Positions 23,963 through 26,698 are shown, numbered from the stretch's first letter. The stretch: 64,000 nucleotides of DNA from an uncultured Oxalobacteraceae bacterium (GCA_903862415.1 CAIOYD010000077.1:60454-124453); one strand, 5' to 3'. The notes: a model not told the origin generated them from the sequence alone. Made by a program: numbers and translations.

Positions 23963-26698
23963 TTAATTCCATGAAGAATAAGGTTGACCTTTGGAACCCA
24001 GCGGCCGGTGACAACCGCTCGATGAGCAATCTTTAACGCCGGCATTGTTATGCTTGGCGCGATTGATTTTCGTCATATTGCCCAGGTAGGTCGAGGTTGA
24101 ATCATGGCAGGTAACACAAGACGTCTGCATGGTGCCGTGATTCATTTTATCCACCGTAAAGGTCACGGTACTGCTGTGACAGAGCGAACATTCATTTCCC
24201 GGCATACCGGTTGGCGTCAGCGTGGGAATATGATTACTTGGCTTGGACATCACACCGGTATAGGCACCACTGTGACAAGTCTGACAGGTTCCGGCAGCCA
24301 CGCCAGTATGACTGAATGTCGCCGGCAGCCAGGCGGAAAAACTCTTGTGACAGTTTTCACACGGCAGCACCGTGGGCATATGGGTCGCCGGCTGAACATC
24401 AATATTCGGATAAGAACCGGTATGGCACGTGGCGCAACCGGTAGCCGCCACACCGGTATGGGCATACGGCGTAATGAGCGGCAGCCAGGACAGACCGGTA
24501 CGATGGCAGGTATCGCACGACATGGCTGTCGGAATATGCGGTGTCGATTTACCACTGGCATTGACACCGTTATGGCAGGTGGCACAGCTTCCGGCCACAA
24601 CGCCCACGTGGGCAAACGTAGTTGGTTTCCACAGCGTGGTGGTGTGACAGGCGTCACACGACTGCGTGGTCGGAATATGCGTCACGGTTTTTATCTGCGC
24701 ATTAATGGCCGTGTAAGCACCACTGTGGCAGGTAATGCAATTACCGGCCGCCACCGGGCCTGTGGTTCCGGTATGACTCATCACACCCGGATTGAAGGCC
24801 GTGAAACCGGTGTGACAGACATCGCATTGCGCCGTGGTCGGGATATGGTTGGTCGGCTTACCCAACGCACTGGTGCCGTTATGGCAGGTGCTGCAGTTGC
24901 CGGTAACGGGCGTGGTGGAGGTGGCATGATTAAAGGACGCCGTCGCCCAGCTGGTGGTGGAACTGTGGCAGGTATCACATTGCGCCGTGGTCACCACATG
25001 GGTTGCGGTTTTGGCCTGGGCATTCTGTGATACATAGCTGCCGTTATGGCAGTTGGAACACTGACCGGCCATACCGGTATGGTTCATCACGCCCGGTGCC
25101 CAGGCGCTATAGCCACTGGTATGACAGGAATCGCATTGTCCGGTCGTCGGGATATGCGTTGCTGGCTTGGTGAGTGCGTTCACAATCACATAACTGCCGC
25201 CATGACAGGTTGCACAATTCCCCACCGCCAGCGGGCCGGAAGTACCGGTATGACTCATTACAGCCGGACGGAAAGTGCTGTAATTGGTATGGCAGGTTGA
25301 ACACTGCGCTGTTGTCGGAATATGGGTTGAAGGTTTTCCCAGTGCTTTTGTGCCATTGTGGCAGGTGGAACAATTACCGATGGCATTGATGTCATGGGCA
25401 AAAACCGCCGTCGCCCAACTGACCGTACTGCTGTGACAGCTATCACACTGGGCCGTGGTGCTGACATGGGTCGCTGGTTTTACCTGCGCATTTTGCGTCA
25501 GGAAAGCGCCCGAGTGGCAGGTGGCACAATTCCCGGCAGTGAGCGGTCCGGTGCTGCCGGCATGGTTCATGATGCCCGGGGCCCAGGCCGTAAAGCCACT
25601 GGAGTGACAGGTATCGCACTGAGCCGAGGTAGGAATATGAATATTCGGCTTAGTCTGAGCATTGGCAAAATTGAAGGCGCCGTTATGGCAGCTCGCACAT
25701 TGACCTGCCGTGGCAGTATGGTTCATCTGTGCCGGTTTAAAGGCAGCAATATAAGTGTGACAGGTATCACACTGCCCGGTCGTTGGCACATGATTAACCG
25801 GTTTACCGATAGCTGCAACATTGTTATGACAGTCAGAACAGCGGTTAACCACTGAAGGCTGAATCGATGCATGATCCGGCTTGGCGGCCGTAGCCCAGGT
25901 GGTGGTGGATTTGTGACAGCTGTCACACTGCGACGTTGTGCTCACATGCGTGGCCGGCTTGGTCTGGGCATTGTAAGGCAGGAAGGTGCCGCTGTGACAG
26001 GTGGAACAATTGCCGGCAGAAACCGGGCCCTGCATATTGGCATGCATGGTAGCAACGCTGACCGCAATCGGCGCGAAAGCAACCCCGGCGTTATGACAGG
26101 CATCGCACGAGGCGGTGGTAGGAATATGCAGCGTAGCCTTACCGGTGGCGCGCACGCCGTTGTGGCAGGTGGCGCAGGTACCCGGAACAACCAAGGCATG
26201 GCTATAGCCGGCCGGTATCCATGCCTTGGTTGCATGGCAGGAATCACAGGCAGCGCTGGTGATCAGATGCAGAGAATTTTTACCAGTCGCTGTCACACCG
26301 TTATGGCAACCGCTGCAGGAAGCAATCAACACCCCTTGAGAAATATCATGCCGGAACACACTCGGCGTCCAGCTCACGGTACGATGACAGGAATCACATT
26401 TAATGGTGGTCGGTATGTGCATGACCGGCTTACCTGGAGCACGCTCCCCTTGACGGTGACACAATGCACAATCACGCGGTGTACCACGGAACTGACCCTG
26501 CACGTGACAGGAAGAACAGTTCACACGAATATGCGCACCATCAAGCAAAAACCCGGTGGTGTTGTGATTGAAATTCGTACCCGGCGAGCCCTGCGCTGCC
26601 GCCACGCTGCTGGCGCTAAAAAACAGCAGCAAGACCAGTCCCAGTTGACCGGCCATACGGAGAATTGCAGTTATTTTTTGGCTTAGCATGTTTTTCAT
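23963..26698 (-). CDS. Secreted multihaem cytochrome c, 32 CxxCH plus one CxxxxCH motif (paired-CXXCH repeat type)
   Basis: I counted the motifs directly in the 911-aa translation. The signal peptide is MKNMLSQKITAILRMAGQLGLVLLLFFSASSVAAAQG. There are about 16 repeats of the form C-x2-CH...K..H(I/V)PTT..C-x2-CH....W......H. Confidence 0.9.
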   Translation of the reverse strand: MKNMLSQKITAILRMAGQLGLVLLLFFSASSVAAAQGSPGTNFNHNTTGFLLDGAHIRVNCSSCHVQGQFRGTPRDCALCHRQGERAPGKPVMHIPTTIKCDSCHRTVSWTPSVFRHDISQGVLIASCSGCHNGVTATGKNSLHLITSAACDSCHATKAWIPAGYSHALVVPGTCATCHNGVRATGKATLHIPTTASCDACHNAGVAFAPIAVSVATMHANMQGPVSAGNCSTCHSGTFLPYNAQTKPATHVSTTSQCDSCHKSTTTWATAAKPDHASIQPSVVNRCSDCHNNVAAIGKPVNHVPTTGQCDTCHTYIAAFKPAQMNHTATAGQCASCHNGAFNFANAQTKPNIHIPTSAQCDTCHSSGFTAWAPGIMNHAGSTGPLTAGNCATCHSGAFLTQNAQVKPATHVSTTAQCDSCHSSTVSWATAVFAHDINAIGNCSTCHNGTKALGKPSTHIPTTAQCSTCHTNYSTFRPAVMSHTGTSGPLAVGNCATCHGGSYVIVNALTKPATHIPTTGQCDSCHTSGYSAWAPGVMNHTGMAGQCSNCHNGSYVSQNAQAKTATHVVTTAQCDTCHSSTTSWATASFNHATSTTPVTGNCSTCHNGTSALGKPTNHIPTTAQCDVCHTGFTAFNPGVMSHTGTTGPVAAGNCITCHSGAYTAINAQIKTVTHIPTTQSCDACHTTTLWKPTTFAHVGVVAGSCATCHNGVNASGKSTPHIPTAMSCDTCHRTGLSWLPLITPYAHTGVAATGCATCHTGSYPNIDVQPATHMPTVLPCENCHKSFSAWLPATFSHTGVAAGTCQTCHSGAYTGVMSKPSNHIPTLTPTGMPGNECSLCHSSTVTFTVDKMNHGTMQTSCVTCHDSTSTYLGNMTKINRAKHNNAGVKDCSSSGCHRPLGSKGQPYSSWN

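Follow-up and report, generated by a model that had tools for sequence, protein, structure and literature searches.

What is the function of a 911-residue protein that carries 32 CxxCH haem-binding motifs? The question is raised by a locus of an uncultured Oxalobacteraceae bacterium (GCA_903862415.1, CAIOYD010000077.1:60454-124453), analysed as one 64,000-nucleotide stretch, here called the window. A preliminary description made from the DNA alone saw in the protein a candidate molecular wire. Judged from its sequence and gene context, the protein is probably the outermost cytochrome of a PCC3-type conduit, a class defined by a porin, extracellular and periplasmic multihaem cytochromes, and an inner-membrane protein (IMP) (He et al., 2017, Front Microbiol 8:1584; PMC5566968). 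The wire reading agrees with a spare histidine per haem, the lack of enzyme features, the haem density, and the gene context, but it is not new, having been proposed for the PCC3 class by He et al. (2017; PMC5566968).

Direct counting returns the 32 CxxCH motifs and the terminal CSSSGCH (a CX4CH motif, residue 891) reported earlier. Shuffled versions of the protein (n=2000) contain 0.32 CxxCH motifs on average and four at most, so a chance origin of the count is excluded. All 66 cysteines lie inside haem motifs. There are also 66 histidines, 34 of them outside CxxCH and one of these 34 in CX4CH, leaving 33 spare histidines for 33 haem sites, as many as the preliminary description thought sufficient for bis-His ligation throughout. 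Its remarks on composition and density hold as well: Thr (14.1 %), Ala (11.3 %), Ser (9.5 %), and Gly (8.2 %) add up to 43 % of residues, and there is one haem per 27.6 residues against the ~27 first given. Charged residues make up 7.5 % of the mature protein (D+E 2.9 %, K+R 4.6 %).

The open reading frame (23963..26698, minus strand) has no interruption; elsewhere, gene callers place its start three codons later, which gives 908 residues. An identical 908-residue protein is encoded on contigs of three separate metagenome assemblies, and an apparent disruption of the neighbouring gene in one of these is a run of Ns. The gene is therefore real and not the pseudogene that the preliminary description had allowed for. 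Long open reading frames on the opposite strand over the same interval are shadows of this compositionally biased gene. Cleavage of the Sec-type signal peptide, as read from the residues, would fall between SSVAAA and QG. The first cysteine of the protein is residue 61 and, because none precedes it, there is no lipobox. Neither CxxCK nor a catalytic or other extra domain was found in the protein by motif counts and domain-library scans.

The published PCC3 class is closely matched. Its extracellular cytochrome has a median of 34 haem sites (up to 85), is repetitive, rich in Thr, Ser, Ala, and Gly, and low in residues per haem, is predicted to lie outside the cell, and inspired the idea of a molecular wire (PMC5566968). 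The periplasmic cytochrome has a median of 21 haems, and the IMP is a protein of ~300 residues and five helices with two WX3HX13H motifs (transmembrane helices 3 and 5) and SGXXG on the helix between (PMC5566968). In content and order, the window genes equal Slit_1446-1449 of Sideroxydans lithotrophicus ES-1, annotated as IMP, cyt-c_p, cyt-c_e, and porin (PMC12016527); Slit_1447 and Slit_1448 have 24 and 28 haem sites, respectively (PMC8788666). The 32-haem cytochrome is likewise repetitive and Thr/Ser/Ala/Gly-rich with fewer than 30 residues per haem, and its haem number stands beside the median of 34 and the 28 of Slit_1448. The window IMP carries both WX3HX13H motifs and SGxxG. A second window cytochrome has 24 haems in eight trihaem repeats of ~70 residues, within the published 21-27 haems and ~66-70-residue repeats. 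The periplasmic PCC3 cytochrome of Leptothrix cholodnii SP-6 has 24 haems, eight repeats, and 27 residues per haem (He et al., 2017), and PCC3 cytochromes range from 10 to 35 haems in Gallionellaceae, with periplasmic values of 21, 24, and 27 (PMC10734462), and from 10 to 57 in the Sphaerotilus-Leptothrix group (PMC13386937). Two genera that are named as carriers of PCC3, Sulfuricella and Aquabacterium (PMC5566968), are among those with relatives. The window differs from these cases in its host, an uncultured betaproteobacterium with relatives among Oxalobacteraceae isolates (71 % identity), and no iron-oxidation markers were seen within the window.

Gene order is conserved beyond the window. 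On the minus strand the order runs IMP, 24-haem cytochrome, 32-haem cytochrome, porin candidate with tetratricopeptide repeats (TPR), and a CcmI-like gene, with 4-nt gaps or overlaps between genes; the start codon of the porin candidate lies 4 nt past the cytochrome stop. These cluster genes occur together in all 17 related genome loci. The order IMP, periplasmic cytochrome, large cytochrome, porin is kept in 12 genome loci with long enough flanks and in many of 80 metagenomic loci, and five genome loci are rearranged. The 24-haem gene is present in 40 of the 40 metagenomic loci with room downstream, and its homologues in 15 related genome loci are 46-69 % identical. Beside the large cytochrome gene there is always an outer-membrane protein gene, even in the rearranged loci (L012-L016), and porin-candidate homologues in that position are 43-63 % identical.

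Several points weigh against the assignment. PCC3 is called functionally unverified in the Sideroxydans literature (PMC12442390, PMC12016527, PMC8788666), and purification, localisation, or deletion is not known for any PCC3 protein. In ES-1, expression of both clusters falls on Fe(II) (PMC8788666), and proteomes of the strain did not reveal Slit_1448 (PMC12016527). The 32-haem cytochrome has no lipobox and thus no evident means of surface retention. The barrel match of the porin candidate is weak (OMP_b-brl, E=0.009), and the protein has no PDB relative. A full-length AlphaFold2 model of the cytochrome (21-sequence alignment) reached a mean predicted local distance difference test score (pLDDT) of 42.7 and was discarded, and a 318-residue segment model (72 sequences, pLDDT 72.5) had no Foldseek match in the PDB at E<=10. 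The assignment was made against published motifs, gene order, and composition; IMP searches that started from the window and Paucibacter sequences list neither Sideroxydans nor Leptothrix among their matches. We infer haem occupancy, location, subunit contacts, and flow direction of the window conduit.

The repeat architecture was first described as about 16 units of 50-55 residues from residue ~60 onward. A near-regular dihaem array is indeed present, but cutting the protein at every second motif yields 15 units of 47-57 residues, in an array that starts at ~75-126, and haems 1-3 form a trihaem module. The unit consensus is G-x-C-x-T-C-H-N-G-(0 or 4 residues)-x-A-x-x-K-P-x-x-H-I-P-T-T-x-x-C-D-x-C-H-x3-W-x-P-x4-H. 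Relaxed matching finds the 15 or so H(I/V/M)P(T/S)-like motifs counted earlier, but the strict pattern H[IVM]P[TS] has 11 occurrences. The unit resembles a c7 repeat minus its first haem, a likeness that would account for the better fit of Cytochrome_C7 than of the doubled-CXXCH model. Pfam Cytochrome_C7 (PF14522) scores 178.6 bits against a cut-off of 24.8 over 13 stretches, and TIGR04257 (nanowire_3heme) scores 78.1 bits against 40. The doubled-CXXCH search recommended earlier is positive for the protein as a whole (PF09699, Paired_CXXCH_1, 71.4 bits against 20.6; TIGR01905, 38.7 against 25.2), but no single stretch is significant.

The ends and the centre of the protein are distinct. The motif F-N/D-H-x2-T-G-F-x-L-x-G-x-H leads into the trihaem module, which is 31-37 % identical to the repeats of the 24-haem cytochrome. 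Six of the eight repeats align with E-values between 6e-14 and 5e-10, and the remaining two more weakly (5e-7 and 0.008). In the module, F40, H42, T45, L49, and H53 do not vary across an alignment of 21 homologues. In the centre, units at an offset of three share 58 % identity, compared with ~46 % at other offsets, units 16 and 22 reach 73 %, and the first segment of these units is short (23 residues) or long (27 residues) in the order short-long-long. The C-terminal end, D-C-S-x-S-G-C-H-R-P-L-G-x-K-G-x-x-Y-x-x-W, is conserved in most full-length homologues, with C888, C893, and H894 invariant in the 21-homologue alignment. No tandem repeat is detectable at the DNA level inside the gene, so the repeats are ancient and a recent expansion is excluded.

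The family shares this plan. A search of 5.8 billion proteins returned 2833 relatives at E<=1e-10. Burkholderiales, Rhodocyclales, and related Betaproteobacteria account for most of them, and many are 1200-1580 residues long. Family statistics refer to the best 120 homologues, which have 19-57 haems, a median of 27.2 residues per haem, ~9 % charged residues, and ~50 % Ser, Thr, Ala, Gly, and Asn. Per haem motif they have a median of 1.05 spare histidines (interquartile range 1.02-1.10), and the predicted distal histidines are mostly invariant or at least 90 % conserved among 21 homologues of similar length, a signature of bis-His electron-transfer haems throughout. Motif-spacing strings reveal conserved N- and C-terminal caps around a middle of variable length, which grows by 6-haem (23-24-27-25-27-28) and 4-haem (23-29-27-25) modules. 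The Paucibacter homologue shows an almost perfect 6-haem period, seven times over.

Table 1. Coordinates and evidence for the features of the cytochrome cluster in the window
Feature	Coordinates	Strand	Evidence
Multihaem cytochrome c, predicted extracellular subunit of PCC3-type conduit	23963..26698	-	Open reading frame, motif counts, domain matches
Sec-type signal peptide, residues 1-~35	26594..26698	-	Single hydrophobic segment 9-27, ending SSVAAA before QG
N-terminal c7-like trihaem module, residues 41-126, haems 1-3	26321..26578	-	Alignment to 24-haem repeats
Dihaem-unit array, residues 126-858, haems 4-31; unit 1 overlaps trihaem module	24125..26323	-	Unit table, identity matrix, alignment
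Central zone of hexahaem modules (three units each), residues 285-651	24746..25846	-	Offset-3 identity, homologue spacing strings
C-terminal cap, residues 859-911: haem 32 (CVTCH), then CX4CH end	23966..24124	-	Motif count, homologue alignments
24-CxxCH cytochrome, 609 residues (gene callers agree), predicted periplasm-spanning subunit	26704..28533	-	Eight c7-like trihaem repeats of ~70 residues
Inner-membrane protein (PCC3 IMP), 292 residues, predicted dihaem-b transmembrane electron carrier	28508..29386	-	Two W-x3-H-x13-H and S-G-x-x-G
Outer-membrane protein candidate (PCC3 porin), 796-799 residues	21559..23958	-	Signal peptide, N-terminal domain, Ala/Pro/Val-rich linker, BamD-like TPR, ~440-residue C-terminal presumed barrel
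CcmI/CycH/NrfG-type TPR protein, 251 residues, membrane-anchored	20753..21508	-	TPR_CcmH_CycH 70.6 bits, NrfG-like
Membrane-anchored iron-sulfur (FeS) flavoprotein, 431 residues, candidate fifth component	29713..31008	+	Divergent from IMP gene; domain matches, adjacency

The IMP is recognised by its motifs: WFRYH-x13-H at 96, SGVIG at 137, and WHIAH-x13-H at 278 (numbering of a 303-residue open reading frame). Across 16 sequences down to 35 % identity, there is no variation in SG..GR or in the first histidine of either pair, and the second histidine is conserved in every row that reaches its position. A crude hydropathy scan gives strong segments at 33-51, 126-144, and 280-298, with weaker ones at ~60-78 and 96-114 by eye only. 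The protein matches no Pfam family and has no PDB relative, and its family comprises 2443 cluster representatives at 50 % identity (E<=0.001). Some homologues (P0433, P0491, P0409, P0425, and others) are 450-690 residues long, with N-terminal extensions that are TPR-rich or lack a Pfam match, and might be fusions or gene-calling artefacts.

The porin candidate matches TPR_16 (E=5e-5) and YfiO (E=6e-4). Its residues ~135-235 (window 23250..23560) form a low-complexity Ala/Pro/Val-rich linker (…VPVVVPVAVVPAIPAAAIPVAAIPVVVVP…) between the N-terminal domain and the BamD-like TPR, in which short DNA tandem repeats occur at 23397-23426 and 23477-23491. In metagenome locus L019 the gene appears split; there is no frameshift, only a scaffold gap of Ns exactly at the linker. 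Related loci keep the CcmI-like gene after the porin gene. In Paucibacter sp. JuS9 (L018 16640..23506), its position is taken by a whole ccmABCDEFGHI operon followed by the FeS-flavoprotein gene. The genes in this position suggest a dedicated haem-attachment helper for the giant cytochromes, and the CcmI-like TPR protein is probably an apocytochrome chaperone.

The FeS-flavoprotein encoded beside the IMP gene seems not to have been reported as linked to PCC3. An N-terminal transmembrane helix followed by basic residues precedes a ferredoxin-like domain, in which six cysteines and His92 are invariant among 58 homologues and the FeS motifs are atypical (CxGSGAC...CP and CIGHGAC...CP, 2xFeS-type). 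The thioredoxin reductase (TrxR)/YpdA-fold domain has invariant GAGPAG for flavin adenine dinucleotide (FAD) and GGGDSA for NAD(P)H, and no redox-active CxxC. Among solved structures, the protein is closest to the YpdA/Bdr reductase and to thioredoxin-reductase-type ferredoxin-NADP reductases. Homologues are found in 16 of the 17 genome loci. Of the 54 metagenomic loci whose upstream sequence is long enough, 50 have one, and in 49 it adjoins the IMP gene and is transcribed divergently. The pair of IMP and flavoprotein stays together in the otherwise rearranged L012-L016, and in Paucibacter the same locus has the flavoprotein gene at its far end. Between the IMP and flavoprotein genes, an AT-rich region of divergent promoters contains a perfect 9+3+9 palindrome (29621..29641; AATGATTGT-AAA-ACAATCATT). 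As a regulatory clue it was rejected: its Fur-like half-sites have the wrong spacing, and it is absent from 70 related intergenic regions.

He et al. likened the PCC3 IMP to the transmembrane domain of ferric reductases and NOX (PMC5566968). Together with the flavoprotein linkage, this comparison suggests a split NOX-like, NAD(P)H-fed input and outward flow. Tentatively, PCC3 might thus be a five-component system and not primarily an iron oxidase: the flavoprotein would take electrons from NAD(P)H and pass them to the dihaem-b IMP in a split NOX/FRE-like module, which would feed the 24- and 32-haem cytochromes and bypass the quinone pool. Counting against a split NOX, no fusion of IMP and flavoprotein was found, the long IMP homologues (449-687 residues) having neither FeS nor FAD domains, and the two genes do not form one operon. 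Alternatively, the flavoprotein might serve maturation or maintenance.

The conduit would be assembled as follows. The 32-haem product would be exported by Sec and loaded by Ccm, aided by the CcmI-like TPR protein, with ~33 covalently bound, bis-His, low-spin haems, making it one continuous single-chain haem wire. The solved MtrCAB chain extends ~0.9 nm per haem, a spacing from which we estimate an extended wire of roughly 25-30 nm. The trihaem N-terminal module would be the likely contact with the 24-haem subunit, at or inside the outer-membrane barrel, and the nearly uncharged dihaem array, rich in Thr, Ser, Ala, Gly, and Asn, would extend outward from the surface and exchange electrons with insoluble or colloidal partners such as Fe/Mn minerals, humics, electrodes, or other cells. 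The 24-haem cytochrome has ~25 residues per haem and 31.7 % charged residues as opposed to 7.5 %, a contrast that fits a periplasmic and a surface location, respectively. In the inner membrane, the IMP would hold two b haems stacked across the membrane on two HX13H pairs, with its basic loops (80-95 and ~150-270) placing both His pairs for the stacking. Outward flow, from cytoplasmic NAD(P)H via the FeS-flavoprotein, appears somewhat more likely.

The same conduit might instead run inward, the direction favoured in the iron-oxidiser literature, taking up extracellular electrons from Fe(II) or mineral oxidation and feeding them through the IMP into the quinone pool or respiratory chain. We hold this to be possible though doubtful. 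PCC3 was first found in Fe(II)-oxidising bacteria and occurs commonly in Sideroxydans (PMC5566968, PMC10734462), the IMP gene of PCC3 copy 2 is up-regulated in iron-oxidising Sideroxydans CL21 (PMC12442390), and Mtr-type conduits are reversible, working both ways (PMC10734462). However, the authors who saw the ES-1 clusters go down on Fe(II) concluded that they are apparently not involved under those conditions (PMC8788666). The window carries leucine and acyl-CoA catabolic genes, and no Cyc2 or Mto was seen in its 64 kb; most relatives are found in Burkholderiales and Rhodocyclales that live heterotrophically. FAD and NAD(P)H sites are present in the conserved partner, and the reduction of NAD(P)+ by Fe(II) electrons would be strongly uphill.

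A periplasmic location of the 32-haem protein, as an electron reservoir (capacitor) or a second periplasmic rod, is improbable. It would agree with the plain Sec signal peptide that lacks a lipobox, with a type II secretion system (T2SS) found beside the cluster only in this window and not in the 17 related loci, and with the electron-storage role suggested for PCC3 haems (PMC10734462). The composition is unlike that of the periplasmic neighbour, however, both in the charge contrast and in a Ser/Thr/Ala/Gly/Asn share of ~50 %; the constant pairing with an outer-membrane protein gene, kept in L012-L016, and the published predictions of a location outside the cell (PMC5566968) also speak for a surface location.

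Polymerisation into filaments like Geobacter OmcS, OmcE, or OmcZ is more improbable still. Conserved caps around a variable middle could in principle join head-to-tail, but the 30 PDB sequences that the family profile matches at E<=0.01 include none of these chains, nor did a single-sequence search of the PDB find one, returning only a marginal c7-like match, 8k9e, an entry for which no mention was found in the literature. Known filament cytochrome subunits have 4-8 haems, and a 33-haem chain is already of wire length alone. Despite weak sub-threshold hidden Markov model matches to NrfH and HmcA, a catalytic multihaem enzyme of the NrfA, HAO, or octahaem tetrathionate reductase type, the characterised family with a soluble-substrate site that the preliminary description had weighed, is exceedingly improbable, given 33 spare histidines conserved site by site, no CxxCK or non-haem domain, and enzyme-family scores that all lie far under their cut-offs.

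The wider window holds further sets of genes. A complete T2SS set (GspC, F, E, D, N, M, L, K, pseudopilins, H, and G) occupies 4624..15691 on the minus strand, ~5 kb downstream of the cytochrome operon. Such a system would suit the export of a surface cytochrome, but as a conserved cluster partner it was rejected, none of the 17 related genome loci having T2SS genes within 8 kb. On the other side of the cluster (34735..48907, plus strand) lies a set of secretin, MshE-type ATPase, T2SS-F platform, TPR, and prepilin-like genes resembling those of the mannose-sensitive haemagglutinin (MSHA) or a type IV pilus. Two paralogous proteins with DUF3391 and HD-GYP-type (HD_5) domains flank the T2SS (2256..3515 and 15810..19044, both minus strand). 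One HD-GYP-type gene adjoins a multi-PAS histidine kinase between the T2SS and the cytochrome operon, and these neighbours hint at regulation linked to cyclic di-GMP. A toxin-antitoxin-like pair of HTH_3 and Fic/DOC genes (19531..20570, plus strand) separates the regulator genes from the end of the PCC3 operon. Leucine and branched-chain catabolism is represented at 48993..55692 (minus strand) by methylcrotonyl-CoA carboxylase alpha and beta, enoyl-CoA hydratase, acyl-CoA dehydrogenase, and a beta-keto acid cleavage enzyme, a set that would indicate an organotrophic host and not an obligate lithotroph.

The gene alone changes little, being a typical further example of a family described since 2017 with members of up to 57-85 haems. 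PCC3 clusters are widespread, and their products include some of the most haem-dense proteins known. The modular architecture, with a trihaem docking module, an expandable 4-/6-haem middle, and a CX4CH cap, and the tight genomic link to an NAD(P)H-type FeS-flavoprotein could make both the function of PCC3 and its direction of electron flow testable. The window gene would carry more weight only if that link proves functional.

Compared with the PCC3 papers cited here, the window adds the shared trihaem N-terminal module, the hexahaem modules, the CX4CH end, the CcmI-like gene, and the FeS-flavoprotein gene, none of which they mention. MtrCAB and MtoAB of Shewanella and Sideroxydans, the 20-haem conduit solved across the outer membrane, follow the same logic, a periplasmic multihaem rod in an outer-membrane barrel combined with an extracellular multihaem cytochrome. 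The family profile shows a weak similarity to MtrC (E=2.8e-12), MtrA, MtrF, and UndA, and no solved structure comes close. The 32-haem cytochrome belongs neither to OmcA/MtrC (TIGR03507, 67.5 bits against a cut-off of 209.3) nor to DmsE/MtrA (TIGR03508, 119.3 bits against 192.2), and the porin candidate has no MtrB_PioB match even at E<=10. The window cytochrome also lacks the lipobox of the MtrCAB-type lipoprotein and has about three times as many haems, and the inner-membrane partner is of the dihaem-b type and not CymA.

The likeness to NOX and FRE lies in two His pairs, each 13 residues apart, on two transmembrane helices of the IMP, and in a neighbouring flavoprotein whose FAD and NAD(P)H sites would face the cytoplasm. 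In contrast to those enzymes, the IMP has no Ferric_reduct homology (no Pfam match at E<=10), and the window dehydrogenase is a separate protein with a TrxR/YpdA fold and a ferredoxin domain, whereas NOX and FRE have a ferredoxin-NADP reductase-fold domain fused to the membrane part. Similar in design to the 32-haem chain is GSU1996 of Geobacter sulfurreducens (PDB 3OV0), the dodecahaem "nanowire" and c7-domain polymer, likewise a single chain of repeated c7-derived modules and matched by the family profile at E=3.2e-12. GSU1996 is periplasmic and has 12 haems, some of them His-Met ligated; the window protein is about three times longer, is built mostly of dihaem units without the first c7 haem, and has sites that all appear to be bis-His.

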